DNA of 40,322 nucleotides from Alphaproteobacteria bacterium (GCA_004356335.1 SMXP01000021.1:1-40322), one strand, 5' to 3'. Counted from the first letter of the stretch, positions 6,448 to 25,052 are shown. A program made the numbers and translations. Notes: generated by a model from the sequence alone, not told the origin.

Positions 6448-7218
6448 TTATTCAGCAGCGTAAGGCGGGCTGCTTGTCAAACTGGCTTGATCTCTTTCCG
6501 AAACAAAAAGGCGCTGCACATTGGCCAGGTCTTCCTGCGTGTCCACCTCACCCCAAGTCAGACCTTCAATTGACGCCGCCTGGACGAAACCATCTCTTGC
6601 CATTTTGTCCACAACCATCAGATACCAGGCGTGCACCGCTTCAGGATCTTGCATGGCCTCCGCAATGGCTTGCGCAAAAAGCTGCGGGCCTTCGCCGCGG
6701 AAATACAAAAGGCCAATCGATTCGCCGTCCGTCTCCTCGCGCGACAATTTTTTGCCGACCGCCAAAAGACGCGTCCCATTGAGTTGAACTTTCATATCGT
6801 CATCGTCGTAAGACGACTTGCGATCAATGGTGATCGTGATCGGCGCGAGGGTACTGGAAAGAACACGCCGCGGTATTCTCGGCTCGAATAATGTATCACC
6901 ATTTACCAGTAGAAAATCACTGTCCATTTCATCAATCGCCATCCAACAACTGGCAAGGTTGTCCGATACCTGAAAGAAAGGATTGAAAATTGTCCGGATG
7001 CTGAGATTGGGACTTTGCCAAGGCGCCAAGGTACGCTCAACCGCCTCAGCACCAAACCCCGTGACGACACAAACGTTATTGACGCCGCAGTCATGTAAAA
7101 CCTTTATCTGCCGTTCAAGCATGGTAAGATGGCCGATTGGCAAAAGACACTTTGGTCGGTGTTGAGTCAAAGGAAGAAGTCGTGAACCGCGTCCCGCACT
7201 TAGTATTATAGCTTTCAT
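6448..7218 (-). CDS. LicC/IPCT-like phospho-alcohol cytidylyltransferase (NTP-transferase fold)
   Basis: ORF 6448..7296. The likely start is ATG 7218 (MKAIILSAGRGSRLLPLT..PKCLL), which forms an ATGA overlap with the upstream stop. It has the G-loop LSAGRGSRL, NPFFQVSDNLASCW and WGEVDTQEDL, as in CTP:phosphocholine / inositol-phosphate cytidylyltransferases. Confidence 0.75.
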   Translation of the reverse strand: MKAIILSAGRGSRLLPLTQHRPKCLLPIGHLTMLERQIKVLHDCGVNNVCVVTGFGAEAVERTLAPWQSPNLSIRTIFNPFFQVSDNLASCWMAIDEMDSDFLLVNGDTLFEPRIPRRVLSSTLAPITITIDRKSSYDDDDMKVQLNGTRLLAVGKKLSREETDGESIGLLYFRGEGPQLFAQAIAEAMQDPEAVHAWYLMVVDKMARDGFVQAASIEGLTWGEVDTQEDLANVQRLFVSERDQASLTSSPPYAAE

Positions 7219-7964
7219 TGTACCAGCAACTTCTGAAATGTTTTGTGTTGAAATTCCGAATGAGTCAATTTTTCCGTCCCGGGTGGTATATCCCAATCGA
7301 CCACTTCATATCCGAGTTTCCCAGCCTGCTTTTTAAAGTTTCGGTTCGGGTTCACGGCTATTCCACGGTCTGCCCAAGATAAAAGTGGCACATCCGACTT
7401 ATGATCCGAGTAAGCGATGATCGTACAATCCTCTCGCGACGCCGGCAGCGCCGCCGCGACAGCGCTTAGTTTTTCTTGCCCAAAACAGTTCTCCCCCTCA
7501 ATTGTGCCACAATATCGGTCCGCTTCGTCCCAGCTGGATTTTGTGCAAACGGTCAATGCAAAGCCCAGCCTGGTCGCCAGCGGACATGCCCAAAGGTCCA
7601 TACTGGCTGTCGCCAAAACCAATAGGTGTTTCTGGGATCTATGTTTCTCAATGGCAGGTCTAGTACCCCGGCGCAGGCCTCGTAAAAGCACCCTTTCCAC
7701 AAAAGCGTCAACATAATGGTTAATTTCCTGCCGCGAACGGCCGGCCAAAAACAGGCCGAGCATTCGCTCCTTGAAAGCCTGACGGGCGATCCCCCCCGTC
7801 AAATAGCGTAGTGCCGCTACAATCGCCGGTACCAAGGCCCAGGCTCGAGTAGGATTCTGGCGCAAGACCGAGAGAAGGAATGGCGTAAAGGTGCCGTACT
7901 TCGTCAGCGTTCGATCCAAATCAAACACAGCAACCGTCACCTTGTTATCTATCGTGTTTGCCAT
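7215..7964 (-). CDS. HAD-IB family phosphatase
   Basis: 249 aa. Motif I is VAVFDLDRTLT, followed by a cap region and motif IV-like AYSDHKSDVPLL. This is the HAD subfamily IB (SerB-like) pattern. Confidence 0.8.
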   Translation of the reverse strand: MANTIDNKVTVAVFDLDRTLTKYGTFTPFLLSVLRQNPTRAWALVPAIVAALRYLTGGIARQAFKERMLGLFLAGRSRQEINHYVDAFVERVLLRGLRRGTRPAIEKHRSQKHLLVLATASMDLWACPLATRLGFALTVCTKSSWDEADRYCGTIEGENCFGQEKLSAVAAALPASREDCTIIAYSDHKSDVPLLSWADRGIAVNPNRNFKKQAGKLGYEVVDWDIPPGTEKLTHSEFQHKTFQKLLVQ

Positions 7965-7983
7965 CAGCCTGAAATTATCTCGT

Positions 7984-9195
7984 TTAAGCCTGCGCTTCCG
8001 CCAACCAGGACGTGATCGAGTGACCTCGAGCCCGCATTACCAATGCCTGAATAAGCCGCACTGCATGGAATATGAACGTAATGACACTCCACACCGCCAG
8101 CATGAGGAACCCGATATCAGGCCGTGCGATCAGGGCCCCGATCATCAATAAGGCCACGTTCGGGTTGCGCCGTGCCGAAAATAGCCGGAACACCGAATCC
8201 ACAGACTGCCACATGTGAATTTGAATGGAGAACGAAAAGACGAATATGCCTTCAATAACACGACAAGCGAGATAGCCCGCCACGATAATCACCATAGCCG
8301 TTTCCAGCCAGGGGCCAAACTGATCGTATTGGGTGGCGCCGAGGCCAATCCACCATGCCACCCACCAAAACGGCGGATGGATATGATCAATGCCATGATC
8401 GTAAATATCGCCCCATTGCGAATAGGTCATCGTAACGCGGGCAAGCTTGCCGTCGACCGTATCCAACAGGGCCATGAGCCAGGCAGTCATAATACCGCTC
8501 ATGAAGTAGCCCTTAGCGAACAGATAGGTTGTCGCAATGACCAAAATGAGACTTCCCGTGGTCACCGTATTCGGTTTGATGCCCCTATTGGCGGCCCACC
8601 GCGTCACCCGCAATGCAGGGATCGGCCAGAACCATTTGGTCACGAAATCGGTTACCCCTTTGTACGATTGGGTGAACATTTTCTTCTCGATGCCGCGCGC
8701 CGACATTTCGTTCAACGAAATCGCATAAGGCACTTCCCGTTTTCGCAGTCCCTTATTGTAGGCAGAACCTAGTTCCGACGGGCATAAAATCCTGAGTCCC
8801 AGAGCCTCTGCCGACGTGTCATCAAACGCACCCTTGGTCACAAGGGCATGTGCTAATTCGAATCGGCGGGCATCCCCCTCGGCTTCAAGATGGATAGCGA
8901 CCACTTTCCGTTGGCCGTTGGCCGTTGGCTCGGTGACCAGAAGTACATTGGGCGATGTGGTTAGATTTCGCACCAGACTGGGATGCAGAACCCATTCGGC
9001 CCCGACCACCAAAACAGCCCTATCGGGCTTGGCTCGTTTGGTGTCGACTTCGGCGCCGGACCGTGAAAAGCCACGCGCCAAATGCTCCTTGGGTGTCAGC
9101 CCCCAAATCCGCTGTTTGCAGTCGCCGACAATGCGTAGTACCGGCTTCGAGTTTCCCTCCACCGCATCCCGCGACTGCGGCTCTTCGACCGTCAA
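7984..9195 (-). CDS. CDP-alcohol phosphatidyltransferase-family membrane protein with N-terminal soluble domain of about 170 aa
   Basis: The signature is complete: DTVDGKLARVTMTYSQWGDIYDHGID fits D-x2-DG-x2-AR-x8-G-x3-D-x3-D. Multiple TM segments follow. TTG start 9195 has GGAGG 10 nt upstream. Confidence 0.85.
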   Translation of the reverse strand: MTVEEPQSRDAVEGNSKPVLRIVGDCKQRIWGLTPKEHLARGFSRSGAEVDTKRAKPDRAVLVVGAEWVLHPSLVRNLTTSPNVLLVTEPTANGQRKVVAIHLEAEGDARRFELAHALVTKGAFDDTSAEALGLRILCPSELGSAYNKGLRKREVPYAISLNEMSARGIEKKMFTQSYKGVTDFVTKWFWPIPALRVTRWAANRGIKPNTVTTGSLILVIATTYLFAKGYFMSGIMTAWLMALLDTVDGKLARVTMTYSQWGDIYDHGIDHIHPPFWWVAWWIGLGATQYDQFGPWLETAMVIIVAGYLACRVIEGIFVFSFSIQIHMWQSVDSVFRLFSARRNPNVALLMIGALIARPDIGFLMLAVWSVITFIFHAVRLIQALVMRARGHSITSWLAEAQA

Positions 9196-9485: not shown

Positions 9486-9932
9486 ATGACAAAAAGTGAT
9501 TGGGTCAATGAGACGATTCTCAAGTTCGGATATCCCAAAACCCTTGTCGCCGAATCCACCCATTGGGTGATACTCCTGCGGCCACGTCAAGCGACGTTGG
9601 GCGCCCTGATCCTGGCCCATAAGGGACATGCGACGTCGTGGGGGCAGATTGAGGCGGGCGCCTTCGAAGAGCTCAAGAAAATCACCTCGGGCGTCGAAAA
9701 TGCCCTGTCCAAAGCCGTCGAATTCAAAAAGCTCAATTACCTGATGTTGATGATGGTGGATCCACAGGTTCATTTTCATGTTCTGCCCCGCTACGATCGC
9801 GACCAGACGTTCGCGGATATTGTTTTTCCTGATCCGGGATGGCCCGGCCCGCCGGATCTAGGTTACGCCCCCGATCTTGATCCGGGCGCTTTTGAACGAT
9901 TGCGCCAGCACATACGCAGTCACTGGGCCTAA
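9486..9932 (+). CDS. HIT-superfamily nucleotide hydrolase/transferase-like protein
   Basis: 148 aa. QVHFHVLPRY aligns with the HIT motif HxHxHVLPR. The first His is Gln and the two distal His are kept. Divergent from the CDP-alcohol transferase operon. Confidence 0.6.
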   Translation: MTKSDWVNETILKFGYPKTLVAESTHWVILLRPRQATLGALILAHKGHATSWGQIEAGAFEELKKITSGVENALSKAVEFKKLNYLMLMMVDPQVHFHVLPRYDRDQTFADIVFPDPGWPGPPDLGYAPDLDPGAFERLRQHIRSHWA

Positions 9933-9940
9933 ACGATTAT

Positions 9941-11356
9941 TTAAATTCGCGCCAACAGCCGTGACGCGATAACAAACAACAAAATGGCAGCCACAAGGTT
10001 GCCGATCAAAGCGGCAACGCCAGCGCCGATCAAACCTATTTCCATTAACAACACAATGATGGCGCTGACATGCACAATGCCCGCAACAAGCTTGATATAT
10101 AATGCCAGCTGCGGGCGGCCGATTGCATACAATGTTGGTTCAAAGGCAAACGTCGCCATGGCAACAGACGATGCAAGTGTGAGAATCAACAAGACGCCAT
10201 AAGCGTCGGCGAAGTCGTCACCGAAAAGATAAAAAAGTACCGGTTGGCCGGCAACAAATACAATAACGGTAAAAAGGCTACCGATCAGAAGGCCTAGTTT
10301 GCCCGACTTAAAGACGATCTGTCGCAAATAGGCGCCGCTCTGCGAACCCGCGAGCTTTGCCAATTCCGGGTAGATCGTGCTGTTAAACAACTGGGCCGCT
10401 TTGGTCAGTGCTCCGGCAATCTCCTGGGCCACTTTGAGAAGGGCAGCCCCGGCCGGACCAAGAATGAAACCAACAGACAGAGTCGCGATATACGTACTGG
10501 CCATATTAGCGGTGCCGTGGAAATTGGCCGTCCAAACAAATGGCCATATGCCTTCGTGGGGGGATGCCAATCCACGCAAACGCCAATCCATGCCTTCGGT
10601 CACTTTTTGCCTTTTTAATTCGCGCCACCCGAGACAAACTAAAACCAGCGCGCTCAATGCACCTGCAATAAACCAAACTAAAAGATAGATCTGCCAACTT
10701 GCGCCCATATAACTGGCAATCCCTACACCAATCAATCGCAAGATAGGCACGATCAACGCTTGAAATCCCAACAAATCGAATCGGTTGAACAATCGCAACA
10801 CACCCAAAGGCGTCGATTTGACGTTGATCAGAATGAGCACACAATAAACCGTTGCAAGCGGCACCGCATCGGGCGCAAGACCGAACCTTGGTCCAACATA
10901 TTGAATGGCAATAGCCCCGATAAGAAATCCGATTACCGCACTTGCCACGTCGAGACACAGTGTCAGTTTTAACAATTTCTGAAAGGCGCCGAGATCGTCT
11001 TTATCGAGATAGGCCGCGCCGTAACGAATGAGTGCTTGCCAGGATTTGAAGGAAACGATTTCTCGGACGAACGCCGAATAAGTATGAATTAAGACAATGA
11101 TGCCGAACTGAGCAGCACCCAATGCCTGTGCGGCAAGGGAAAGGTAGGCAACGCCCGCAACAACAGCCACGCCCTTACTACTGACCACAATGCCCGTATT
11201 TTTAAGCACCCGCCGGAACAAATGATCGGGCGACCAGCCATCCGATTGTCGTTGTGTAACATCGGTCGCAGAACCGGACGTGATGGAGCCTTCCGGCGAT
11301 GGGGCGTCGGCGTCGGAGGCCATCCCTTTTTGATTGTCCCGAGTGGTCATTTTCAC
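9941..11356 (-). CDS. MOP/Wzx-type polysaccharide or lipid-linked-substrate flippase
   Basis: 471 aa with at least 12 hydrophobic segments, like proteins annotated as lipopolysaccharide biosynthesis / Polysacc_synt. GTG 11356 overlaps the upstream TGA (GTGA). An alternative ATG lies at 11350. Confidence 0.7.
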   Translation of the reverse strand: MKMTTRDNQKGMASDADAPSPEGSITSGSATDVTQRQSDGWSPDHLFRRVLKNTGIVVSSKGVAVVAGVAYLSLAAQALGAAQFGIIVLIHTYSAFVREIVSFKSWQALIRYGAAYLDKDDLGAFQKLLKLTLCLDVASAVIGFLIGAIAIQYVGPRFGLAPDAVPLATVYCVLILINVKSTPLGVLRLFNRFDLLGFQALIVPILRLIGVGIASYMGASWQIYLLVWFIAGALSALVLVCLGWRELKRQKVTEGMDWRLRGLASPHEGIWPFVWTANFHGTANMASTYIATLSVGFILGPAGAALLKVAQEIAGALTKAAQLFNSTIYPELAKLAGSQSGAYLRQIVFKSGKLGLLIGSLFTVIVFVAGQPVLFYLFGDDFADAYGVLLILTLASSVAMATFAFEPTLYAIGRPQLALYIKLVAGIVHVSAIIVLLMEIGLIGAGVAALIGNLVAAILLFVIASRLLARI

Positions 11357-12162
11357 TGTCGCGCAAGCAAGATTTTTTCCGCTAGTTCCAGATCAGCCAT
11401 TTTATCAACATCGATGGCGGCTTCGGGAAACGGCAGGTTGACGGGCCTTGCCACAAGGCCAAGCCGATTCGAAGCGCGGTCTAACGCCTTAACCAATGTC
11501 GGTCGCCTCAGAAAAAACATTATAATGGTCAATAGACCAAATGCCCAAATTATGCGCCAGGGCCGTTTGCGATGGCGAACCACATCCCGCCAGAATTCCG
11601 CCGCCTTAAGTCCCTTCGCCGTTCGAAAGACGAAAAGATTGCACGAAGAATATTTGTCGTCCTTGAAAGGAAGGTAGGTTCGTTGAGCATCCGGAAATTT
11701 CTCTTGGATCAACCGGCCGGACGTAAAGGCAATCGATAAGTCGGCCGATGCTTTGAGCAACTCTTTACAGAAATAGTCGACAATCTCAACCGTCAGAAGA
11801 GCATTGTCTCCGGTTGTTACCAATAGGGGGAAAGGATCGGAAAGAGAGTGGGCGGCCGTCAAGAGACTATCAGGCGCGCTCCTTGCCGAAGGCATAAATT
11901 CAATGGCACCTTGATCCAGAAAGTCCTGCAACACCGGTATTGCCTCCAAGGCCTCGGCCTGATCCCCAACCACGATTATGCGCCCAATCCGGTGGCTGAC
12001 TTTCAAGGCATCAATAACACGCAGCAAAATTGGTGTCCCCGCTGCCGCCATGTAACACTTGTTATGTTGCCAAACCGACTCAATTGCATCACTCCCGGAA
12101 TGTCGCCCAGCTAAGATGAGCGCAGTAAAGAGTTGAGATTGTGACGCCAATTCCTCTGCCAC
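11353..12162 (-). CDS. MobA-like (NTP_transf_3) nucleotidyltransferase-family protein with C-terminal hydrophobic segment
   Basis: 269 aa. It has LFTALILAGRHSGSDAIE (G-loop-like), ..MAAAGTPILLRVIDAL and LLVTTGDNALL. GTG start 2 nt after the upstream stop. Confidence 0.6.
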   Translation of the reverse strand: MAEELASQSQLFTALILAGRHSGSDAIESVWQHNKCYMAAAGTPILLRVIDALKVSHRIGRIIVVGDQAEALEAIPVLQDFLDQGAIEFMPSARSAPDSLLTAAHSLSDPFPLLVTTGDNALLTVEIVDYFCKELLKASADLSIAFTSGRLIQEKFPDAQRTYLPFKDDKYSSCNLFVFRTAKGLKAAEFWRDVVRHRKRPWRIIWAFGLLTIIMFFLRRPTLVKALDRASNRLGLVARPVNLPFPEAAIDVDKMADLELAEKILLARQ

Positions 12163-12164
12163 TG

Positions 12165-13367
12165 TTAAAGTGCCTTCTCGTACATGCGATAAACTTTATA
12201 GGGGCGTCCGCCAATTGCCTCAATCATATTGCGCATGGCCGTATTGTCTTCGAGTATCCATGACATCTCACTTTTCTTGATTCCCCTTTCCAGGTGGCTC
12301 GCGTAAATATTCTCTATCGTTCCGTAAGCAAAAACGGCACCAAGCGGTGTCGCTTGAAATTCCTTACGAACCCCCATCAAGGGCACTCGGACGGTGCTCA
12401 CCCGGTTCAATTTCAGGCGATAAAGCAAGCGCGCCCAGCCAAACGGAAAAAGCCTGCCGTCAAGATCACGTATCGCCTCATTGAGATTGGGCAATGCCAT
12501 AGCAAAGGCGACCGGCCTGCCTTCAAATTCAGCAAAGCAGACCGAATGGGAATTAATGAGAGGCCGCACCTCTTTGGCAAGGTGCCGAATTTCTTTTTCC
12601 GTGAAAGGCAGGAATCCCCAATTCTCCGACCACGCATCGTTAAAGATATCAGCGATAATGGCCATTTCTCGTTCATAGGCGCTCCAATTGAGCGGACGCA
12701 ACGTGATTTTCGGATCGTGTTTTCCGCGATCCACCAATCGGCTAACCGACGGCGGAATGCCGCCTTCGCTCAATGTGATCAAATAAGCGATTAGATCCTT
12801 CGCCTTTTGGTAGCCGCATTGCTCCAGCATGCTCCCATAATAGGGCCTCGCATGTCCCATCATGAGCATAGGCGGGTCATCAAACCCCTCTACAAGCACA
12901 CCGCATTCGTCATTGACCGAAAAATTGAAAGGTCCAAGGCTGCGGCGCATATTGCGCGAGCGCAGCCATTCCTCCGCCGCCGCAAGCAACGCCTCGAAGA
13001 CATCTTTCGAGTTAACCGCCTCCAAAAAGCCGATATGTCCCGTATGGGCATCGTGTTTTTCTAGAAAGCGGCGGTCAATCTGCGCACTCAGCCGGCCCAC
13101 GACTTCCCCGTCTTGCAACGCCAACCACAGCTGAACCTCTGCTTGGTCAAAGTAAGGATTATGTTTTGAACTTAAATGACGCAAGCGCTCGACAAGCAGC
13201 GGTGGAACCCACGCCGGGTCATCGGCGTATATCTTCCACGGCAGGCGGATGAAAGTTTTTAGATCTTTACGGGTCCTAACCGGAACGATGTGGATTGCGG
13301 AAACCCCATTCGCATCTGGAGACGGAGTGGCCTCGCGCGTTATCGAAGACGGCTCAAATGTCGGCAT
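12165..13367 (-). CDS. large (about 400 aa) GNAT-fold N-acyltransferase; candidate bacterial ceramide synthase (tentative)
   Basis: ORF 12165..13427. The likely start is ATG 13367 (MPTFEPSS), sharing 1 nt with the upstream TGA (TGATG). Motifs FIRLPWKIYADDPAWVPPLL, GRLSAQIDRRF, GFLEAV and GPFNFSVNDECGVLVEGFD belong to a family often mislabelled dATP pyrophosphohydrolase. Confidence 0.55.
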   Translation of the reverse strand: MPTFEPSSITREATPSPDANGVSAIHIVPVRTRKDLKTFIRLPWKIYADDPAWVPPLLVERLRHLSSKHNPYFDQAEVQLWLALQDGEVVGRLSAQIDRRFLEKHDAHTGHIGFLEAVNSKDVFEALLAAAEEWLRSRNMRRSLGPFNFSVNDECGVLVEGFDDPPMLMMGHARPYYGSMLEQCGYQKAKDLIAYLITLSEGGIPPSVSRLVDRGKHDPKITLRPLNWSAYEREMAIIADIFNDAWSENWGFLPFTEKEIRHLAKEVRPLINSHSVCFAEFEGRPVAFAMALPNLNEAIRDLDGRLFPFGWARLLYRLKLNRVSTVRVPLMGVRKEFQATPLGAVFAYGTIENIYASHLERGIKKSEMSWILEDNTAMRNMIEAIGGRPYKVYRMYEKAL

Positions 13368-14137
13368 CAATTCTTGGCAGCAACGATCGGGGCTGTCTCG
13401 GAACCCGTGGACAATTGTGCCACCCAAGGATATCGCTTGGCTTCGCTGTCCGTGTAACCCAAATTTCGCGCGGTTGGGCTACGCGGCACCGAACTGTTGC
13501 TGTCATAATAGGACGAGAAAAACCTGTCCCACAAATAGTTGGTAATGCCGTAATTGCCCGTCTCATTGTGAAAGTGGTGAGCCATATGCAATTGCTTGAT
13601 TCGCTCGAGAAAAGCGCTCTTTGGCGCATATCCCAGATGTTGACTGCAATGACAAAACTCATAAAAGCAAGTGACCAGGATGCCTGCCGCAAGTCCAATT
13701 GCCGCCCCCGACAAACCGCCAATAAGCCCGCCCATGGGCGCGGTCACGACCACAACCGTCGGCAGCGTGGTATGCAGACCGCCGAACAGCACCGCCATAT
13801 CGTTCGGATTCTGATGATGATCGAAATGTATCCGCTTCCAAAGCGCTGCCGTCATCTCCGATTTATAAAGCCAGCGACCGTGCAGAAGGAAACGGTGAAG
13901 AACATACCAAACAAGAGGATAAACCAAAATGACAACCACCACGACAATCGCCAAATCAGCCAATCGACCGAGCGAATAAACCGCCAAAATACACAGCGCG
14001 AAAAACAACATGAGATAGACTTGAATTCCTGGATAGGTGAAATAGGCCTTGACCAGGTCATTTAGAGACATCTTGTCCAGAAGATATTTCTGACTCTTCC
14101 AGGTCTTGTAACTCATAAACACGAGAGTCGCTCCCAA
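13367..14137 (-). CDS. fatty-acid hydroxylase / sterol-desaturase-superfamily membrane di-iron enzyme
   Basis: His boxes HRFLLH, HFDHHQNP and HMAHHFHNE, with an N-terminal TM pair. First gene of a four-gene overlapping operon. Confidence 0.8.
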   Translation of the reverse strand: MGATLVFMSYKTWKSQKYLLDKMSLNDLVKAYFTYPGIQVYLMLFFALCILAVYSLGRLADLAIVVVVVILVYPLVWYVLHRFLLHGRWLYKSEMTAALWKRIHFDHHQNPNDMAVLFGGLHTTLPTVVVVTAPMGGLIGGLSGAAIGLAAGILVTCFYEFCHCSQHLGYAPKSAFLERIKQLHMAHHFHNETGNYGITNYLWDRFFSSYYDSNSSVPRSPTARNLGYTDSEAKRYPWVAQLSTGSETAPIVAAKN

Positions 14138-14307
14138 GTTGACGTCCTAAGATATGCGGCTTTGTGGCCCGAAAATAGACGGTAAAACGTCGCATTCGAG
14201 GGCCGACTGCCCGGGGATTCGGGCCGGCACGCCCATTTCTGCGTACCCGGCCCTATTTGAATCAATTCGGCGGACAATTGCAACCGATCGACCAAAACCC
14301 GCAAAAG

Positions 14308-14346
14308 CTAGAGTGTTTCCAAGAAAACCGGGTTCGTTCATCCTAG
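14308..14346. repeat. Mosaic hairpin repeat locus R5 (truncated B1-like module)
   Basis: ctagagtgtttccaagaaaaccgggttcgttcatcctag shares its first 25 nt or so with module B and R4. Confidence 0.6.
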
Positions 14347-14351
14347 CCGCT

Positions 14352-14948
14352 TTATTTTTTTGACGGCCAATTTTTCAACACAATCTCCACATCGGCGCCG
14401 TTTTCACCGACTTCGAAGGACAGGTCGCTAAATTTCGGTACCCTTAATCGTATTCGCGGATTGTTCGACAAGCCGAACGGCTCCTTGGGAAAACCCAACC
14501 AATTCTTGTCGAATTTTCTATTCCCGTTGATGTCGTGATAAACCGCAATGGCATAAGTGCCATATGTTTCCACCGGAACACATAAACGGACCTGGTCAAA
14601 CGCTGCCGACACCCGCGTGCGCGAGATTTTCATACCTTTCTTGAGGATATGATCCGGGTTGTCGGCAAGAAGGTCCACCACAATCGACCCGCTCGCCGTC
14701 CTTACATCTTGCACCGTAACCAATATATGAGATGCTAATTGGGCGCAGCCGGCGACACCGAGGCTTTGTGAAGGCACGGCTGAAACCACAACGCCCAAGA
14801 CCACAATGAGCGCTGCCAGCGGCCAATATAGAGCAGGCCGAAGAAAAGATATTACAGCCGGTAAATAAAAAGTGACCGGCGATAAACGAGAATTATTGTG
14901 GATTGAAGGGTCCAACCCACTGAAATTGAGCAAATCTCTCAATATCAT
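14352..14948 (-). CDS. DUF2141-like exported/anchored protein
   Basis: ORF 14352..14987. The start is uncertain (GTG 14987, ATG 14963 or ATG 14948). It has a TM/signal segment PLAALIVVLGVVVSAV and a C-terminal YAIAVYHDINGNRKFDKNWLGFPKEPFGLSNN, which I recognise as the DUF2141 signature. Confidence 0.6.
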   Translation of the reverse strand: MILRDLLNFSGLDPSIHNNSRLSPVTFYLPAVISFLRPALYWPLAALIVVLGVVVSAVPSQSLGVAGCAQLASHILVTVQDVRTASGSIVVDLLADNPDHILKKGMKISRTRVSAAFDQVRLCVPVETYGTYAIAVYHDINGNRKFDKNWLGFPKEPFGLSNNPRIRLRVPKFSDLSFEVGENGADVEIVLKNWPSKK

Positions 14949-15000
14949 GCCCCCCTGAAGCATATGAAACAGCAAACATTTACCCACTTAGCCCAACTAT

Positions 15001-15021
15001 TTGCGATAATGGATATCGCAA
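15001..15021. promoter_or_regulatory. Perfect 8-bp inverted repeat in the divergent DUF2141 / lptF promoter region (candidate operator)
   Basis: TTGCGATA-atgga-TATCGCAA, located 56 nt upstream of the lptF ATG (15077). Confidence 0.35.
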
Positions 15022-15076
15022 GCCGGGTCAAGATTACGATGCCCTCTGTTGAGTTCACGAAAATGCGGCGAACGAA

Positions 15077-16291
15077 ATGAGTTTGGTCAACCGATACATA
15101 TTGCGACAACTAATTGTCTATTCGGCAACGATCATGTTGATTGCCTTGGCCGCGCTGTTGCTCGAACGCATGCTTAGGTTGCTCGATCTGACGGTAAATT
15201 CAGATGGTATGATCGGTTATGTCTCGCAAATGCTACTGAATCTAATTCCGCATTATTTGGGAATCGCAATACCGACGACATTCTTTCTCGCAGTGCTTTT
15301 GACAGTGAGCCGCATGAGCCGCAACAGCGAGCTCACGGCGCTCAATGCAGCCGGCGTCGGACTGTTGAGATTGATGTATCCCATTATGGCGACAGCAATT
15401 TTACTAACGGCAATCACCGCAATATTACTCTCCGTCATTCAACCCTACAGCCGCTACACTCATCGATCGCTGGTTCACGACGTTAGCTACCGCTCTCTTG
15501 ACACGGCACTCAAGGAAGGTGCCTTCGTACATGCCGGCGACATGACTTTCATGGCGGAGGGCCGGTCAACAATGGGCGACATATTGACGAATGTCTTCGT
15601 GTTTAAGCGCAACGATGACGGAAGCTCTACTGTTACGACAGCACCCAAAGGTCTATTGCTAAAGGACGCCCCTGAGCTCGGTATGTCCCTCGGCCTTGAA
15701 AATGGCGTCCGCATTGATTTCACCAAACAAGGGAGTTTTGACCGCCGCTTGAGTTTTGAGTCGTTTTTGTGGCCGGTTAATATCGGCACTTTGGGGCCGT
15801 TCCGTGCCCGAGGTCGTGACGAACGCGAGCTGACCCTCACGGAACTTTGGCAGTATCGAAATTCCGCGCCAGAAAAAATCGGTAAAAATAAAATCGTTTC
15901 GGAGTTTCACGTGCGACTCGTGAAGATTCTGTCGATATTAATCTTGCCCCTCATGGCTGTGCCTTTGGGGCTCAATAATAGCCGCACCAGTCAATCCTGG
16001 GGTGTGGCACTCGGGGTACTCGTACTCATTGTCTACCAAAAAGTCATCGAGCTCGGCAGTGCGTTATCGGGGGTCGGCGCAGCATCTCCTTTGGTTAGCA
16101 TGTGGCTACCGTTTCTGTTGTTTTTAGTGGTCGGAGCGGGACTTTTTTATCACGTGAGTCGGCGCGTCACCGCCGACCCGACAGACTGGCTCGCACACCA
16201 ATTTGGTGGATTTGCGTCATGGGTGCAGGGATTTTTCGATCGCGCAAAAGATGGGGCGACCGTTGCTAGACGGCCGCAACAAACTAGATGA
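15077..16291 (+). CDS. lptF: LptF-type LPS export permease (YjgP/YjgQ family)
   Basis: 404 aa. The N-terminus NRYILRQL.. is typical of LptF/LptG. There are six hydrophobic segments with a large periplasmic insert between TM3 and TM4. Confidence 0.8.
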   Translation: MSLVNRYILRQLIVYSATIMLIALAALLLERMLRLLDLTVNSDGMIGYVSQMLLNLIPHYLGIAIPTTFFLAVLLTVSRMSRNSELTALNAAGVGLLRLMYPIMATAILLTAITAILLSVIQPYSRYTHRSLVHDVSYRSLDTALKEGAFVHAGDMTFMAEGRSTMGDILTNVFVFKRNDDGSSTVTTAPKGLLLKDAPELGMSLGLENGVRIDFTKQGSFDRRLSFESFLWPVNIGTLGPFRARGRDERELTLTELWQYRNSAPEKIGKNKIVSEFHVRLVKILSILILPLMAVPLGLNNSRTSQSWGVALGVLVLIVYQKVIELGSALSGVGAASPLVSMWLPFLLFLVVGAGLFYHVSRRVTADPTDWLAHQFGGFASWVQGFFDRAKDGATVARRPQQTR

Positions 16292-17355
16292 CGTCTACCT
16301 TACATCGATATCTCACCAAGTTATTTTTCTCGCGCTTGGTGCTATTGCTGGTCGGTATCAATTTTCTTGTCGTCATTCTGGATTTTATGGCCAATGGCGA
16401 CGATGTGATCAGCTCGAACTCGACACCGCTTTTGTCATCCTTTCGCTATATGGGGCTGCGCCTGCCTCAAATTGCGTCAACACTCATGCCGTTTGTATTG
16501 CTTATTGCGGTTCTCCTTACATTGATGGAACTGGTCCGGCATCAAGAAATGGCGGCGATGATGTCGGCCGGCATGTCACAGCTTAAAGTCATGTTGACCC
16601 TGCTGCCCGCGGGCATGATCGTCGCGGTTTTACAATTTGCCATTAATGACCAATTGGAGCCGAGAGCTATAAAGGAACTAAAGAATTGGGGAGTCGGAGA
16701 ATACAAAGTTGATAAGGGGGAGGAGATCGATGCAATTTGGTTTCACCATCAAAGTGACATAATTCGCGTGGGCCGCGTCGAACGCGGTGATCTACTTCAC
16801 GACATTACTATTTTCCGGCGTGGTCAAGACGGAAACATAGTCGAGCGCATTCATGCGAATAGGCTGGTTCACGAAAATGGGACTTGGATTCTGAGTGACG
16901 TCAGCCGTTCGACCATTACTCGCCGCGAGCCGGAACAACTCGACCATCTTGAATGGCAGAGCAATCTGCAGCCCCATCTTGTGGCATCGCTTGCATCTCA
17001 TCCCAAGGATCTATCCGTTTTTGAGATCAGACGATTTTGGCAAGAGGCAAGGTTTGGCAGCTTTCCCAATCATGTTTATGAAGTGTGGATGCACCGGAAA
17101 ATTGTTGCGCCCCTCGTCCTTTTTGTCATGGTTCTAATGTCTGTTCCGCTTGTCCAGCGCTACCAACGTGATACAAATTTAGTTTCGATATTAGTATTCG
17201 GATTGGCTGCGGGTTTTTTCTTCATTGTCTTTGACGATCTTTTGATGACATTTGGCGAGGCGGGGCTCATCCCGCCCATATTGGCTGCTTGGGCGGCAAC
17301 TCTGATCTTCGCCGCAATCGGCGCGACATTGGCCTTGCACCACGAGTCACTCTGA
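16288..17355 (+). CDS. lptG: LptG-type LPS export permease (YjgP/YjgQ family)
   Basis: 355 aa with the same architecture (LHRYLTKLFFSRLVLLL..). ATGA overlap with lptF at 16288-16291. Confidence 0.8.
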   Translation: MTSTLHRYLTKLFFSRLVLLLVGINFLVVILDFMANGDDVISSNSTPLLSSFRYMGLRLPQIASTLMPFVLLIAVLLTLMELVRHQEMAAMMSAGMSQLKVMLTLLPAGMIVAVLQFAINDQLEPRAIKELKNWGVGEYKVDKGEEIDAIWFHHQSDIIRVGRVERGDLLHDITIFRRGQDGNIVERIHANRLVHENGTWILSDVSRSTITRREPEQLDHLEWQSNLQPHLVASLASHPKDLSVFEIRRFWQEARFGSFPNHVYEVWMHRKIVAPLVLFVMVLMSVPLVQRYQRDTNLVSILVFGLAAGFFFIVFDDLLMTFGEAGLIPPILAAWAATLIFAAIGATLALHHESL

Positions 17356-17357
17356 AC

Positions 17358-18332
17358 ATGAACACGCCCGCCGTAAAAGTAGGCCTCATATCAAATCCCT
17401 TAAGTCAAAGAAATAAGAAGCGCCGGGGTAAGCTTAACGACATCGTTAGTTCACACGCCGATATATTATACGAGCCCCTTGAGGAGATCGCCGCTTTGGC
17501 AGAGATTCTCAAAAAGTTTTCGGCCCGTGAGGTCGGGCTGATTGTGCTGGATGGCGGCGATGGCACGGTTCAAGCGGCTTTGACCGAATTACTAAACGGC
17601 AACGCTTACGACACACCGCCATTGCTGTGTGTCTTGCCAAGCGGTATGACCAACTTAATTGCCGGCGATGTCAGCGGCAAAGGAACACCGGAAATGGGTT
17701 TCTCTCGAGTGATAGAGAGAGCGCGCAACGAATCCTTCGATCAATGGATCGTTGAGCGCCATGTCATTCGCGTGCAATATGCACCAGACCTGTCACCCAT
17801 TTACGGCATGTTTTTTGGCATGGGCGCGGTGACACGGGCGATCGAACAATGTCGTCGCGTCATTCACCCCCTGCGAATTGAAGGACCCGGCGCGGTAGGC
17901 CTTACCTTGGCCGGCCTGCTCATACGCAGATCGATCAGAGGGAACCGCGACGATACTGTGTTTCGCGGCGACAATATCACGCTTCAATTTAATGACGGTA
18001 AGGCGATCCCGATACATAACCTGCTGGTTTTGATCTCGACTTTGAAGCGACTTGCGCTTGGAACGCGGCCCTTTTGGGGAGAAGGCAATGGCGGTCTCCA
18101 AGTTACAAGCATCGCCTATCCGCCCACTCGATTTTGGCGCTCACTTTTCCCCCTGCTATATGGCAAGGAAAGGCGCAACCTTGATTCCGAGATTTATTTG
18201 AGCCAAAGAACCGATCATCTCGCCATCACAATGAACAGCCCGTTCACATTGGACGGTGAGATGTTCCAGCCTTCACCGGACATTCCCGTCAGATTAGAGG
18301 CTGCCGGTCCGGTTCGGTTTATCCGCTGGTGA
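17358..18332 (+). CDS. diacylglycerol-kinase-fold lipid kinase (candidate ceramide/sphingoid kinase)
   Basis: ORF 17289..18332. The likely start is ATG 17358 (MNTPAVKVGLISNPLS), 2 nt after the lptG stop. It has the DAGK_cat signature LIVLDGGDGTVQAAL and LPSGMTNL. Confidence 0.75.
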   Translation: MNTPAVKVGLISNPLSQRNKKRRGKLNDIVSSHADILYEPLEEIAALAEILKKFSAREVGLIVLDGGDGTVQAALTELLNGNAYDTPPLLCVLPSGMTNLIAGDVSGKGTPEMGFSRVIERARNESFDQWIVERHVIRVQYAPDLSPIYGMFFGMGAVTRAIEQCRRVIHPLRIEGPGAVGLTLAGLLIRRSIRGNRDDTVFRGDNITLQFNDGKAIPIHNLLVLISTLKRLALGTRPFWGEGNGGLQVTSIAYPPTRFWRSLFPLLYGKERRNLDSEIYLSQRTDHLAITMNSPFTLDGEMFQPSPDIPVRLEAAGPVRFIRW

Positions 18333-18336
18333 CGCC

Positions 18337-19284
18337 ATGTCAATGGAACAAACGCTTGCTCAAATTATTCGACGGGAGATTTATCAGCCGGTACCGCAAG
18401 CGGTGCAAACAGCCGCACAGGGCGTTCGCGATCGACATGGTGATGGTGTCGCGGCAATTCTTTTCTACGGCTCTTGCCTTAGAGACCAATCGGTTGAAGG
18501 CAAAGTGATTGATTTTTACGTACTCGTGGAGCACTACCATAACATCCACAAGAGCTGGATCATGAGCACGGCAAATGCCCTGCTTCCGCCCAACGTCTAC
18601 TATCTAGAGGTCCCCGATGATGGAGGCACGGTCCGCATCAAATACGCCGTTTATACGTTAAACGCATTTAACAGGGGGGCATCCCAACGCACCATACAGT
18701 CGACAATATGGGCACGATTCGCGCAACCCTGTATTCTGCTATACGCGCGCAGTGATGCGGTCGAGGGGCGGATTGTTTCGGCATTGGTCAAGTCCATCAC
18801 GACGTTGATGAAACTAACCACACCTCTCATGGCCACAACATTCACCTCGAAAGAATTATGGGTGCGCGCTTTTCAAGAAAGCTATAGATCGGAATTGCGC
18901 GCGGAACGTTCGGATCGCCCCGCCCAACTCTATGATCATTTTGAAATGCGTTACGAAAAGCTGAGCAAACTTTGTTTGATCGGCGCCGAACAACAAGAAA
19001 GTCAACCTCAAACGCCCACACGCTACCGAAATTCAAGCGGCAAATGGGCTAGAGCCCTCACCCAAACGAGATGTGTGGTGCGGCGGTTCTACGGCAAGTT
19101 TCTCACAATATTGCGCCTTGTGAAGGCGGCATTTACGTTTGATGGCGGACTCGACTACATCCTTTGGAAGATTGAAACCCATTCGGCCGTGCGGGTAAGA
19201 CCGACGCCCTGGCAAGAGCGGCACCCGGTGCTGGCGGCACCGATCTTGGCATGGCGGTTATACCGGCAAGGGGCTTTTCGCTGA
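18337..19284 (+). CDS. Tam41/Mmp37-like nucleotidyltransferase (phosphatidate cytidylyltransferase-like)
   Basis: 315 aa, starting 4 nt after the kinase stop. AAILFYGSCLRD, VIDFYVLVEHY, PPNVYYLEV, IKYAVYTLNAF and IWARFAQPCILLY follow the Tam41 pattern as I remember it (GYGSGVF.Q, DFI..V, GVYFN, KYGV.., AGR.QKPV). Confidence 0.55.
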   Translation: MSMEQTLAQIIRREIYQPVPQAVQTAAQGVRDRHGDGVAAILFYGSCLRDQSVEGKVIDFYVLVEHYHNIHKSWIMSTANALLPPNVYYLEVPDDGGTVRIKYAVYTLNAFNRGASQRTIQSTIWARFAQPCILLYARSDAVEGRIVSALVKSITTLMKLTTPLMATTFTSKELWVRAFQESYRSELRAERSDRPAQLYDHFEMRYEKLSKLCLIGAEQQESQPQTPTRYRNSSGKWARALTQTRCVVRRFYGKFLTILRLVKAAFTFDGGLDYILWKIETHSAVRVRPTPWQERHPVLAAPILAWRLYRQGAFR

Positions 19285-20493
19285 GGCGTCAGAAGATGTC
19301 GGCATGGCATCTCGCCGCATTTCGGCCAAGCGTGAGAAAATCTCTCCAATTTCCTCAATCTCCTCAACGCTGTGAGCGGCTGAAACGCTCAATCGAAGAA
19401 GTGAGGTGGCGTTAGGCGTACCGGGCGGAATAGCCAGATTTACGTAAACGCCTGCTTGAATGAGCCAGTTCCAACACGTCACAGCGTCTTCACGGCTTGG
19501 CATCTTGACCGCAATAATGGGTCCCTTGTCGGCGCAAAGCTCAAACCCTAGTTGATGCAACCGATCGTAAAGCCGTGATGAATTGCGCCAAAGTGTTTGA
19601 CGCAGTTCGGGACGCTTCTCGATCTGATGTACCGCTTCGAGCACCGATGCCACATTGGCCGGCGACATCGACGCGGTGAACATATAAGGCCGGCTGACGC
19701 AACGCAGAAGCTCAAATTCCGGGTGATTGGATGCGGCAAAACCACCTACCGATCCCAGGCTCTTGCTAAAAGTGCCTACATAAAAATCGATTTTATCAAG
19801 CACGCCCTGATCTTCTGAAACGCCGCGACCCTTATCACCAAACACTCCATAAGAATGTGCTTCATCGACAAAAAGATAAGCGTCATGTTCATGGGTAATC
19901 TTTTCGATCTCGGCGACGGGCGCCACATCACCGAACATGCTGTACATCCCTTCAACAATGACCAGCACATTACCGCCGTCTTGGCCCAAGCGGGTTAAGC
20001 GTTTATCCAAATCTTCCGGAGAGTTGTGGCGAAATCGGATGGTCTCGGCGTCGCTCAATTTGCAACCGTCATAAATCGAAGCATGGCAATCGGCATCAAT
20101 TAGAATCGTATCTCCCTGTCCTGTGAGACCCGATATAACGCCGAGATTGGCTTGATAACCGGTTGAAAACACAATCGTGTATTGATAGCCGAGAAACTTT
20201 GCCAGCGCCTGCTCCAGCGCTTTGTGATTCGCATAGGTACCATTGGCGAAACGAGAACCCGTGGTACCGGTTCCTTGCTTCGCCATGGCTTCTTGGCCAG
20301 CGCGCACACATTCCGGGTCGAAGGTGAGGCCGAGATAATTATTGGTGCCCGCTAACAACACCTCACGCCCGTCGATCAACGCTCGAGTAGGCGACAATAT
20401 CTCCGCCATACAGACACTGAACGGATCATCTCCGACCTCTAGGATAGAGTTATACAGATCCGATAATGGTCCAAACTTATCAAAAATACTCAT
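19258..20493 (-). CDS. spt: serine palmitoyltransferase (alpha-oxoamine synthase family)
   Basis: 411 aa. Long collinear similarity to Sphingomonas paucimobilis SPT as I remember it: GTNNYLGLTFDP, GTGTTGSRFANGT, VFSTGYQANLG, DADCHASIYDG, IRFRHNS.EDLDKRL, VDEAHS, and GTFSKSLGSVGG with the PLP lysine. Confidence 0.9.
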   Translation of the reverse strand: MSIFDKFGPLSDLYNSILEVGDDPFSVCMAEILSPTRALIDGREVLLAGTNNYLGLTFDPECVRAGQEAMAKQGTGTTGSRFANGTYANHKALEQALAKFLGYQYTIVFSTGYQANLGVISGLTGQGDTILIDADCHASIYDGCKLSDAETIRFRHNSPEDLDKRLTRLGQDGGNVLVIVEGMYSMFGDVAPVAEIEKITHEHDAYLFVDEAHSYGVFGDKGRGVSEDQGVLDKIDFYVGTFSKSLGSVGGFAASNHPEFELLRCVSRPYMFTASMSPANVASVLEAVHQIEKRPELRQTLWRNSSRLYDRLHQLGFELCADKGPIIAVKMPSREDAVTCWNWLIQAGVYVNLAIPPGTPNATSLLRLSVSAAHSVEEIEEIGEIFSRLAEMRRDAMPTSSDASAKSPLPV

Positions 20494-20497
20494 GGCC

Positions 20498-20752
20498 TTA
20501 TTTTTCGCTCACAAGCTTTTGAACAGACTTAACCAGATCGCCCACAGTCCGCAGTTCAGACATTAAATTCATGGGGAAGGATATATCGTAACTATCCTCC
20601 AACTCCATGATCAAATCTAAGATAGCCACGGAATCGATCTCCAATTCCGTTGCAATATCGGTGTCTTTCGTCAATTCAATGTTATTGACATTGAAGACTT
20701 TCAGCAATGCACAAGTCTTTTGAAAGACCAAATCGTGATCTTCCTGTGGCAT
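20498..20752 (-). CDS. dedicated acyl carrier protein
   Basis: ORF 20498..20875. I prefer ATG 20752 (MPQEDHDLV..) or 20770, because the upstream 35 codons are repeat-derived (the same peptide appears in ORF 39862..40206). Phosphopantetheine site ELEIDSVAILDL. The stop is 4 nt before the spt ATG. Confidence 0.85.
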   Translation of the reverse strand: MPQEDHDLVFQKTCALLKVFNVNNIELTKDTDIATELEIDSVAILDLIMELEDSYDISFPMNLMSELRTVGDLVKSVQKLVSEK

Positions 20753-20802
20753 CTTTTCTCTATCCTTCATCTTTTGGTTCTCATTCGGATATACGCTATC
20801 AA

Positions 20803-20947
20803 CTAGAGCACGTTCACAAAAGATGGAATCACTAACGTGCTCTAGGTCTTTGTTTTGTCGCGCATTCGAACCCAAAAACCGCGTACACTTTTTGTGAATG
20901 CGCTCTAGACCACGTTCTTCGATTCTATGAATTGTGAACGTGGTCTA
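20803..20947. repeat. Mosaic hairpin repeat locus R6 (modules C + A + D)
   Basis: C: ctagagcacgttcacaaaagatggaatcactaacgtgctctag (20803-20845). Linker gtctttgttttgtc. A: 20860-20908. D: ctagaccacgttcttcgattctatgaattgtgaacgtggtcta (20905-20947). It is intercistronic between the acyl ligase and the ACP. Confidence 0.9.
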
Positions 20948-20994
20948 TTGTAATATATCCATCCGGCCGGCTTATAGCAGCTTGTTATGATTTC

Positions 20995-22761
20995 TCACTC
21001 TGCCAAGACAGACAAGCCTTCGGCGGATTCATTGGATCGGTCCTCAAAGGCACCGGCAAGGAATCTAGCTTTTACCTTAGCCCGGCTCAGCTTGCCGGAC
21101 GATGTCATGGTCAGACTGCGCAGCGGTGCCAAAACGATCTTGCTCGTCACACCCGCTGTTGCATGGATCGTTGTTTTGATCCGACGCAATAATTGCTGGC
21201 GCGCTTCATCGCCCTTAACACGGCACTCGACCACCGTCACAACCGATTCCGTCCCATCGGACTTCTCAACTGAAAAAGCCGCCACACCGCCGCTACGTAT
21301 TTCGGGCAGGCGTTCTATGGCCCACTCAATATCGTGAGGCCAAATATTGCGTCCGTTGACGATGATCAAATCTTTGCTGCGACCTGTGACGACAAGCTCC
21401 CCGTCGATCAGGTAGCCCATGTCACCCGTATCCATCCAGCCGTCATCCGTTAAAACCCGTTGCGATGCTTCTTTGTCCTGAAAATAGCCGGCCATAAGGC
21501 TTGGACCACTGATAAAAATGTCGCCAACCTCACGATCCGCCACAAGGGATCCATCGCTGCGTCTGATTTCAAGTCCGTGTCCCGGCATGGGCTTACCGCA
21601 AATGACGAATGTGCGTCTCTTATCCGCGTTACCGTTTAATTTTATGGGTTTAGCGATACCCGAATTGGCATAGACCTGCATATCAATGGTATCTCTCGCG
21701 AAGTCCTCATCGACATCGGCAAAGGTCATGGCGAGCGTTGCTTCCGCAAGGCCATAGCTGGGTACAAATGTCGAGCGTCGATACCCCACGGGCTCGAACG
21801 TCGAGATAAACGTATCAAGCACGTCGGCACGAATCATGTCGCCGCCAATGCCCGCAACGCGCCAAGACGACAAATCGATCCCGTCCAAGGAACCATTCTT
21901 TGCCCGCCGGCAACACAATTCGTATCCGAACGACGGGCTGAACGCCATGGTTGCTTTGTTGTCCGAGATAATCTTGAGCCAGAGCAACGGACGGCGCGCG
22001 AAGTCTGCAGTAGCAATATAATCGACGCTCACCTGCATCATGAGCGGCCCCAGCGCAAACCCCACAAGACCCATATCATGGTAAAGCGGTAGCCAGGAAA
22101 TCGTACGATCTCCTTGCCGACATTTCAGGCCGTGTCGAAGAATGGCGGTGATATTACTTGTCGTGGATTTTTGCGTCGCCGTGACGCCTTTGGGTGAGCT
22201 CGTGCTGCCCGAGGAATATTGAATGTAGCAAGGCTCATCGGGGCCGAGCGGTTGAAGCTCCACCTCGGCTTTGGTCATTTGATCGAAATCGCTATACGTA
22301 CCTATCAAGAGGCCAGGTTGTGATTTCCCGGCTTCCTTAAGAAGTTCGATGAGATGATCGGACGTTACAGCGGCGCAGGCACCAGCCTTGGCCATCATAA
22401 TGCGAATCTGTTCGATATAGGCTTCCTTACCACCCAAATTAATCGGCAACAGAAGCGGTACCGGCAGCAAGCCCGCATATTGGCAGGCAAAGAAGAAAAC
22501 GTGAAATTGCGGGATCGTCTCGGCCAGGATGGCCACCCGACCATGGCGAGGAAAACCCGCCGCAACAAGACGCAATGCCAGTTCTTTGGCCCGGACGCGC
22601 AGCTCCGTATAGGAAATTTGAGCGATCACTTCACCCCGAACAGAATAAAAGTTCAAGCCGGTCTCGCCGCGCGCCGCGTATTCAAGTCCTTCTACGAGTG
22701 TATCGAAACCACTTACCTTGAAGGGCAGTTTCTCGTTTATTGTTGGTGTCGGATTAGGCAT
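20995..22761 (-). CDS. fatty acyl-AMP ligase / acyl-ACP synthetase (ANL superfamily)
   Basis: 588 aa. AMP-binding motifs YIQYSSGSTSSPKGV, WLPLYHDMGL, YGLAEATL and GWMDTGDMGY are present, and the FAAL-like length matches. It is adjacent to the ACP and spt, as in described bacterial sphingolipid loci. Confidence 0.85.
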   Translation of the reverse strand: MPNPTPTINEKLPFKVSGFDTLVEGLEYAARGETGLNFYSVRGEVIAQISYTELRVRAKELALRLVAAGFPRHGRVAILAETIPQFHVFFFACQYAGLLPVPLLLPINLGGKEAYIEQIRIMMAKAGACAAVTSDHLIELLKEAGKSQPGLLIGTYSDFDQMTKAEVELQPLGPDEPCYIQYSSGSTSSPKGVTATQKSTTSNITAILRHGLKCRQGDRTISWLPLYHDMGLVGFALGPLMMQVSVDYIATADFARRPLLWLKIISDNKATMAFSPSFGYELCCRRAKNGSLDGIDLSSWRVAGIGGDMIRADVLDTFISTFEPVGYRRSTFVPSYGLAEATLAMTFADVDEDFARDTIDMQVYANSGIAKPIKLNGNADKRRTFVICGKPMPGHGLEIRRSDGSLVADREVGDIFISGPSLMAGYFQDKEASQRVLTDDGWMDTGDMGYLIDGELVVTGRSKDLIIVNGRNIWPHDIEWAIERLPEIRSGGVAAFSVEKSDGTESVVTVVECRVKGDEARQQLLRRIKTTIHATAGVTSKIVLAPLRSLTMTSSGKLSRAKVKARFLAGAFEDRSNESAEGLSVLAE

Positions 22762-23462: not shown

Positions 23463-23551
23463 CCCTTAGGCTTTGCACCTGATACGGAACCCGTTGCGTG
23501 GGCTTGTTCAACTGTAGGTCATTATTCGAAGGATCATATCAATTGAGGAAA

Positions 23552-24964: not shown

Positions 24965-25052
24965 TCTCAAACCGCCGCGCATCCATGCGAACACGACAAA
25001 CCAGCAGGCGCCTTATTTTCCCCTTAGGCGCTTGCTTTCTTTTGCAATATCC

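Follow-up and report, generated by a model that had tools for sequence, protein, structure and literature searches.

Positions 15,077 to 19,284 of a 40,322-nucleotide stretch of DNA from an Alphaproteobacteria bacterium (GCA_004356335.1 SMXP01000021.1:1-40322; the whole stretch is referred to as the window) carry four genes encoding two Lpt permeases, a lipid kinase of the DAGK fold and a Tam41-like protein (gene 4), which converge on spt, the serine palmitoyltransferase gene. The block is best read as the lptF2-lptG2-cpgB-cpgC module of a locus for anionic phosphosphingolipids homologous to the Caulobacter crescentus cluster CC_1152-CC_1168, which is associated with ceramide phosphoglycerate (CPG) and CPG2, and we place the probability of this reading at roughly 85 to 90%. 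The gene identities, the Tam41 fold of the gene 4 product and the conservation of the gene order across genomes were established with the computational tools used here. The arrangement itself has already been published, as have the two mechanistic ideas connected with it, a ceramide activated with a nucleoside diphosphate (NDP) and a dedicated paralogue of the Lpt machine, and what the window provides is a further example, in a bacterium that has not been cultured.

The four plus-strand genes are tightly packed, as had been reported in a preliminary description prepared from the sequence alone, and direct reading of the junctions bore this out. The lptF and lptG genes share an ATGA start/stop overlap (16288-16291), lptG and the kinase gene are separated by a 2-nt gap (TGA-ac-ATG) and the kinase gene and gene 4 by a 4-nt gap (TGA-cgcc-ATG). 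The stop codons of gene 4 and of the convergent spt gene were also read and end at 19284 and 19258, respectively, giving a 27-nt overlap of the 3' ends. The same open reading frame boundaries, including the kinase ATG at 17358, were returned by an independent gene caller for a metagenome contig with an identical protein. Every peptide motif that had been picked out by eye (GGDGT, FYGSCLRD, VIDFYVLV, PPNVYYLEV and IKYAVYTL) was recovered in the translations, and the identities first given to all four genes were right, namely LptF, LptG, a DAGK_cat kinase and, by family and fold, a Tam41-like protein. A scan of the region 14000-21000 for promoters and terminators gave counts at or below the shuffled expectation and was uninformative on operon boundaries. 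Given the synteny in related loci described below, the four-gene arrangement is far from chance.

Gene 4 is Tam41-like at the superfamily and fold level. Its family comprised 4095 protein clusters (90% identity) at E <= 1e-3, and the Pfam model PF09139 (Tam41_Mmp37) was matched by 22 of 42 sampled homologues, relatives about 50% identical to gene 4, with a best E-value of 6.4e-8. For ten PF09139-positive relatives the scores were 24.9-32.8 bits (gathering score 24), with alignments collinear with profile positions of approximately 65-179. An AlphaFold2 model of gene 4 built on the 42-sequence alignment had a predicted local distance difference test score of 90 and a predicted template modelling score of 0.87. 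The five best Foldseek matches of this model in the PDB were all Tam41 structures (S. pombe 6IG2 and 6IG4; Firmicutes 7ECD) with E-values from 7e-9 to 8e-8 and full-length template modelling scores of 0.50-0.60 over 276-295 columns at 14-17% sequence identity, while the next fold scored about 0.3 and other nucleotidyltransferases reached at most about 0.37. Sequence-based searches of the PDB were also performed. A phmmer search with gene 4 gave a chance match only, a profile of the 42 sequences did not reach Tam41, and a match to a ribosome entry obtained with a single homologue was spurious. A profile of the ten Pfam-positive relatives found only S. pombe Tam41, at a marginal E-value of 0.028, in an alignment that paired PPNVYY of the family with GTGVYY of S. 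pombe Tam41, KYAV with KYGV, WGRxxQP with AGRFQKP and ESYRTELR with LSYLGDIR.

The nucleotidyltransferase core of the gene 4 family reads GS-x12-D59-x-Y61, where D59 is invariant and the second Asp is absent from the strand. The basic residues R49, K102, R127 and R188 are also invariant in the family. According to the literature, Tam41 retains one of the three usual nucleotidyltransferase acidic residues, and the single invariant core Asp combined with the invariant basic residues would be in keeping with Tam41. The C-terminal 80 residues of gene 4 have a net charge of +11 and include an amphipathic helix but no transmembrane segment, a composition that may resemble the peripheral membrane binding of Tam41. 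In comparison with Tam41/Mmp37 (PF09139; 6IG2, 6IG4, 7ECD), gene 4 shares the two-domain fold (nucleotidyltransferase plus winged helix) over nearly its full length, the motifs KY(G/A)V, GRxx(K/Q)P and SYxxxxR, the basic C-terminus and the absence of a transmembrane helix, and the GS...D core with its single invariant Asp may be a further common feature. It differs in lying below Pfam detection and in its position between the kinase gene and spt within a sphingolipid locus, a context that would point to ceramide-1-phosphate over phosphatidate as the substrate. Hidden Markov model searches of the four proteins, which the preliminary description had proposed as a check, matched LptF_LptG and DAGK_cat, and the Tam41 model was reached by relatives of gene 4 rather than by gene 4 itself; the original Tam41 call holds at the level of family and fold and fails for the window protein against the Pfam model.

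When genomes were scanned with each species represented once, 567 gene 4 relatives were obtained, the best about 50% identical to gene 4, and the best 80 loci were analysed for synteny. The association of the block with spt, raised from the window alone, recurred across these genomes. A kinase gene was located directly upstream of the gene 4 homologue and on the same strand in 65 of 70 testable loci, and spt was convergent and immediately downstream in 41 of 75. Among the 41 fully flanked loci, LptF/G genes were found within 10 kb in 32 and at least one ceramide gene (spt, the GNAT synthase or the ligase) within the same distance in 37. The exact lptG-kinase-gene 4 order was present in 16 of 61 loci, and a CDP-alcohol transferase gene was directly upstream of the kinase in 23 of 61. 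The host groups included Alpha- and Gammaproteobacteria, Desulfobacterota, Nitrospirota and Binatia, and the cpgB-cpgC pair, usually accompanied by lptFG and ceramide genes, is conserved well outside Caulobacterales and Sphingomonadales. Two divergent CDP-alcohol transferase paralogues were present in nine loci, one of them always directly upstream of the kinase and the other either adjoining lptG (L019, L031, L033, L052, L056, L069 and L077) or downstream of the gene 4 homologue (L054 and L080).

Published gene orders agree with this pattern. In Caulobacter, CC_1156 and CC_1155 are LptF2 and LptG2, CC_1160 is the ceramide kinase, CC_1161 (CpgC) carries the InterPro entry IPR015222 for Tam41/Mmp37 (CDP-diacylglycerol synthase) and CC_1162 is Spt (Olea-Ozuna et al. 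2024, PMC11324152). The same study lists Hyphomonas neptunium HNE_1586-1590 as LptF2, LptG2, kinase, Tam41-like protein and Spt, which is identical to the order lptF-lptG-kinase-gene 4-spt of the window, and similar orders for S. wittichii (Swit_3900-3903), Z. mobilis and N. eutropha, with the Tam41-like, kinase and spt genes also together in CC_1160-1162 (PMC11324152). The placement of CpgB beside spt in Caulobacter, as given in the preliminary description, was nearly correct, with cpgC lying between the two.

The window kinase showed features described for bacterial ceramide kinases of the CpgB type (PMC10331486), namely a DAGK/LCB5 domain, a GGDG ATP-binding motif and a soluble protein, with no transmembrane segment by hydropathy; the eukaryotic CxxxCxxC motif was sought in the translation and was not present. 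Matches to YegS/DgkB-type NCBIfam models were faint. CpgB has been demonstrated experimentally to be the ceramide kinase of Caulobacter (PMC10331486), and adjacency to the cpgC-like gene in the related loci together with the published gene orders suggests probable orthology of the window kinase with CCNA_01218.

Both permeases matched PF03739 over profile positions 1-352 of 353, with 233.4 bits for LptF and 221.1 bits for LptG, and hydropathy indicated about six transmembrane segments in each. The coupling-helix glutamates E84 of LptF and E88 of LptG, which contact LptB in E. coli (PMC5082905), were kept in the alignments, the former in window LptF and the latter as E87 of window LptG. These properties, the full-length PF03739 domain, the six-segment topology and the coupling-helix glutamates, are shared with the E. 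coli LptB2FG extractor of lipopolysaccharide, whereas the window pair is 21-23% identical to E. coli LptF/LptG and shares its operon with enzymes for sphingolipid headgroups. If Caulobacter LptF2G2 is taken as the model, the cargo of the window pair is probably an anionic sphingolipid. In Caulobacter, lptF2, lptG2 and lptC2 could be deleted only in strains without spt or cpgB, and LptF2 and LptG2 co-purified with each other and with LptB; these genetic and pull-down results support sphingolipid export by LptF2/G2 via LptB (bioRxiv 10.64898/2026.04.12.717747). Transport of phosphosphingolipids to the outer membrane had been named in 2024 as the probable task of the Lpt paralogues (Olea-Ozuna et al., PMC11324152); the suggestion of a dedicated Lpt paralogue in the preliminary description was thus already in print, and the initial experimental support it has since gained comes from Caulobacter only.

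The region 6448-22761 of the window is a single sphingolipid island. Family-level counterparts were identified for 13 of the 17 genes of CC_1152-CC_1168 and included, besides the block and Spt, the AcpR, AasR, bCerS-like GNAT, CC_1153-like, CpgD-like, CpgA-like, HIT and Wzx-like proteins. In the Caulobacter cluster CC_1159 has PF01066, CC_1157 encodes a HIT protein and CC_1166 a putative flippase, CC_1154 is the N-acyltransferase bCerS and adjoins the CofC/MobA-like CC_1153, and CC_1152 is an NTP transferase (PMC11324152). Unlike the Caulobacter cluster, the window is without cerR and, among the open reading frames scanned, without counterparts of lptC2, CC_1167 and the CC_1158 phosphoesterase, and genes for a HAD-IB phosphatase, a fatty acid hydroxylase and a DUF2141 protein are extra to it. 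In the window the cpgA-like gene is located 9 kb away in an operon with the cpgD-like and HAD genes instead of directly upstream of cpgB. A further difference from Caulobacter is that the window organism is known from metagenome contigs only.

Under the proposed pathway, ceramide would be made by Spt, AcpR, AasR and the GNAT ceramide synthase and then be phosphorylated by the CpgB-like kinase to ceramide-1-phosphate, on which the CpgC-like Tam41-fold protein would act. The headgroup would be extended by the CpgD-like, CC_1153-like and CpgA-like enzymes (6448-12162), and the resulting anionic lipid would leave the inner membrane via the Wzx-like flippase and LptF2G2, powered by an LptB encoded elsewhere. 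From the gene content of the window, a route from the kinase through ceramide-1-phosphate to activation by the Tam41-like protein appears plausible. Experimental evidence comes from Caulobacter only and covers the kinase activity of CpgB, the need for CpgC in converting ceramide-1-phosphate to CPG, the synthesis of CDP-glycerate by CpgD, and the interaction of LptF2G2 with LptB together with its conditional essentiality.

Several points weigh against assigning the block to such a module and pathway. We infer the orthology of the window genes to those of Caulobacter from family, fold and gene order, and we likewise infer the headgroup that the window organism actually makes. Gene 4 itself matched no Pfam model, even at E <= 10, and no NCBIfam model. 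The reductase gene cerR was not found in the 40-kb window by tblastn with four reductases from related loci. The mechanism of CpgC was described as unidentified in May 2026, and CDP-ceramide has never been detected. The term "CDP-ceramide" was absent from the searched literature, as was the combination of bacterial sphingolipid and Tam41, the published wording being "NDP-activated ceramide". A consumer enzyme for any CDP-ceramide also lacks assignment because CpgA is dispensable for CPG. Finally, window LptG passes the canonical NCBIfam equivalog cutoff (TIGR04408, 259.6 bits, cutoff 240) and LptF nearly does (TIGR04407, 223.6 bits, 6 bits short of the cutoff of 230), so the locus could hold the only LptFG pair of the organism.

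The last point leads to an alternative for the permeases, in which the window lptFG would be a sole, housekeeping pair, carrying both lipopolysaccharide and sphingolipid or belonging to an organism without lipopolysaccharide, and not a dedicated second copy. The near-canonical scores leave room for it, there is a precedent in S. wittichii, where the pair in the sphingolipid locus was reported as the sole LptFG (bioRxiv 10.64898/2026.04.12.717747), and family scans found none of lptB, lptC or lptA among the window open reading frames. We nevertheless regard a sole pair as less likely than not, since Caulobacter has two pairs of which the locus-linked one is sphingolipid-specific, the linkage of the pair to sphingolipid genes was seen in 32 of 41 fully flanked loci, and the separate genomic context usual for canonical lptFG was not seen at this locus. 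Far less probable is a glycerolipid salvage role for the kinase and the Tam41-like enzyme, from diacylglycerol through phosphatidate to CDP-diacylglycerol and unrelated to the neighbouring sphingolipid genes. CpgB phosphorylated diacylglycerol about as well as ceramide in vitro (PMC10331486) and Tam41 proper uses phosphatidate, but deletion of cpgB in Caulobacter left phosphatidate levels unchanged (PMC10331486), CPG and CPG2 were specifically lost when cpgB and cpgC were deleted, and the pair was linked to spt, the ceramide synthase or aasR in 37 of the 41 fully flanked loci. This role was rejected on synteny and Caulobacter genetics.

For the step after ceramide-1-phosphate, an NDP-activated ceramide formed from this lipid was proposed in 2024 (Olea-Ozuna et al., PMC11324152). 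A more specific version, in which proteins of the CpgC family including gene 4 would be CTP:ceramide-1-phosphate cytidylyltransferases making CDP-ceramide, the sphingolipid counterpart of CDP-diacylglycerol, is offered tentatively and with somewhat less than even odds. The CDP-ceramide-type donor suggested in the preliminary description matches the 2024 proposal and is thus not new. It had further been suggested that a CDP-alcohol transferase and a HAD phosphatase at 7215-9195 would complete a sphingolipid-based copy of the series from phosphatidate through CDP-diacylglycerol and phosphatidylglycerol phosphate to phosphatidylglycerol. Both genes are real (7984-9195 and 7215-7964), but the scheme fits Caulobacter genetics poorly: CpgA is dispensable for CPG and needed only for CPG2 (PMC9393093), and CpgD makes CDP-glycerate, the proposed CpgA donor in the conversion of CPG to CPG2 (PMC12275187). 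Consumption of CDP-ceramide by the transferase and the HAD protein is disfavoured because CpgA is dispensable for CPG and is modelled as using CDP-glycerate from CpgD. One candidate consumer is the second CDP-alcohol transferase paralogue found in 9 of the 80 loci. The main rival for gene 4 follows the proposal of Zik et al. (2022), in which the Tam41-fold protein would join a glycerate- or phosphoglycerate-derived group directly to ceramide-1-phosphate with no CDP-lipid, the nucleotidyltransferase fold serving as a different phosphotransferase. Deletion of CCNA_01219 (cpgC) in Caulobacter, which kept and accumulated ceramide phosphate and lost CPG (PMC9393093), is in line with direct transfer, as are the finding of no other gene required between ceramide-1-phosphate and CPG, the dispensability for CPG of CpgA as the sole CDP-alcohol transferase of the Caulobacter cluster, and the many invariant residues of the family that are not common to Tam41. 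Direct addition of glycerate was, however, judged energetically unfavourable (Olea-Ozuna et al. 2024, PMC11324152), and the fold, like the motifs KYxV, GRxxxP and SYxxxxR, corresponds to an enzyme for which CMP transfer to a lipid phosphate is the sole reaction known; we hold direct transfer to be less likely than not.

Anionic sphingolipids can replace lipid A in the outer membrane of Caulobacter and are the colistin target there, and the conversion of ceramide-1-phosphate to CPG by CpgC is the main unsolved step of the pathway. The window brings no new concept, but its structural evidence independently supports the Tam41/NDP-ceramide hypothesis already in print. The family is much broader than first reported, and if CDP-ceramide were indeed the product, this route could be a common way into the phosphosphingolipid headgroups of bacteria.

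Table 1. Genes of the four-gene block and of the surrounding sphingolipid island, with the evidence for each assignment
Feature	Position	Strand	Evidence
lptF2-like permease, 404 aa	15077..16291	+	Pfam LptF_LptG 5.1e-69
lptG2-like permease, 355 aa	16288..17355	+	Pfam LptF_LptG 2.8e-65
cpgB-like lipid (ceramide) kinase, 324 aa	17358..18332	+	DAGK_cat 8.6e-10, GGDGT
cpgC-like Tam41-fold protein, 315 aa (gene 4), putative ceramide-1-phosphate-activating cytidylyltransferase	18337..19284	+	Pfam matches of the family, AlphaFold2 model, Foldseek
spt, serine palmitoyltransferase	19258..20493	-	NF047599, 608 bits against a cutoff of 500; convergent with gene 4
acpR-like acyl carrier protein	20498..20875	-	PP-binding 1.6e-9
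aasR-like fatty acyl-AMP/ACP ligase	20995..22761	-	AMP-binding 3e-54; NF006624 fatty acyl-AMP ligase 750.8 bits
DUF2141 protein, divergent from lptF	14352..14987	-	PF09912 2.2e-28; N-terminal hydrophobic segment
Fatty acid hydroxylase family protein	13367..14137	-	PF04116 2.4e-20; adjoins the GNAT gene in most related loci
GNAT acyltransferase, bCerS-like ceramide synthase	12165..13427	-	Acetyltransf_1 4.8e-8; synteny with ceramide genes
MobA/CofC-like nucleotidyltransferase (CC_1153-like)	11353..12162	-	NTP_transf_3 2.1e-7; next to the GNAT gene, an arrangement shared with Caulobacter and N. eutropha
Wzx/MOP-type flippase-like membrane protein, 471 aa (CC_1166-like)	9941..11356	-	10-12 hydrophobic segments; PF01943 and PF13440 in homologues
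HIT-like protein (CC_1157-like)	9486..9932	+	HIT 20.1 bits, E 0.001, under the gathering score of 21.5; HFHVLP
CDP-alcohol phosphotransferase (cpgA-like)	7984..9195	-	PF01066 1e-7; weakly similar to models of PIP synthase and DIPPS
HAD-IB phosphatase	7215..7964	-	PF12710 3.3e-32; TIGR01490 126 bits against a cutoff of 98
NTP_transferase (cpgD-like cytidylyltransferase)	6448..7296	-	PF00483 3.4e-11, PF12804; CC_1152/CpgD has the same Pfam domains

Other genes of the island (Table 1) included the minus-strand CpgD-like, HAD-IB and CpgA-like genes at 6448-9195, which form a tight operon of their own, in which one junction overlaps by 82 nt and the other leaves 19 nt. The CpgA-like transferase and the CpgD-like cytidylyltransferase weakly resemble the two halves of the bifunctional IPCT/DIPPS, which uses a soluble CDP-alcohol donor. 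The HAD-IB gene was seen in only 2 of the 80 related loci (L002 and L037) and has no counterpart in the Caulobacter cluster. The HIT open reading frame probably corresponds to CC_1157 of Caulobacter, a gene that published work has regarded as unrelated to the pathway. The 471-aa membrane protein had no Pfam or NCBIfam match itself, and relatives 40-52% identical to it carry PF01943/PF13440; it likely corresponds to CC_1166, a putative flippase for sphingolipid that has been reported absent from the N. eutropha and gammaproteobacterial clusters.

The longest open reading frame of the GNAT gene begins with TTG and has 61 nt in common with the hydroxylase gene upstream of it; the true start is probably further downstream. 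A DUF2141 gene divergent from and just upstream of lptF was also present in L001, L008, L011, L017, L018, L020, L024 and other loci. No lptC2-like gene was seen in the window, and the DUF2141 protein might conceivably take part in periplasmic hand-over. The genes for the acyl carrier protein and the acyl-AMP ligase are separated in related loci by an NAD-dependent epimerase/reductase gene some 1.1 kb long, and their spacing in the window is only 120 bp (20875-20995). One related locus (L024, 10963-13917), from a Rhodospirillales metagenome-assembled genome, carries a tandem pair of spt genes, both with about 64% identity to Spt of the window.

Immediately beside the island is a plus-strand phosphate-uptake block (23498-30910) including a phosphate-selective porin O/P, PstS, a fusion of PhoU-PhoU with a low-molecular-weight phosphotyrosine phosphatase, PstC, PstA and two consecutive PstB-like ATPases. 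Three further plus-strand genes at 31050-34248 encode a putative ATP-dependent zinc protease, a fusion of an inactive transglutaminase with seven transmembrane segments and a sugar-transfer-associated ATP-grasp protein.

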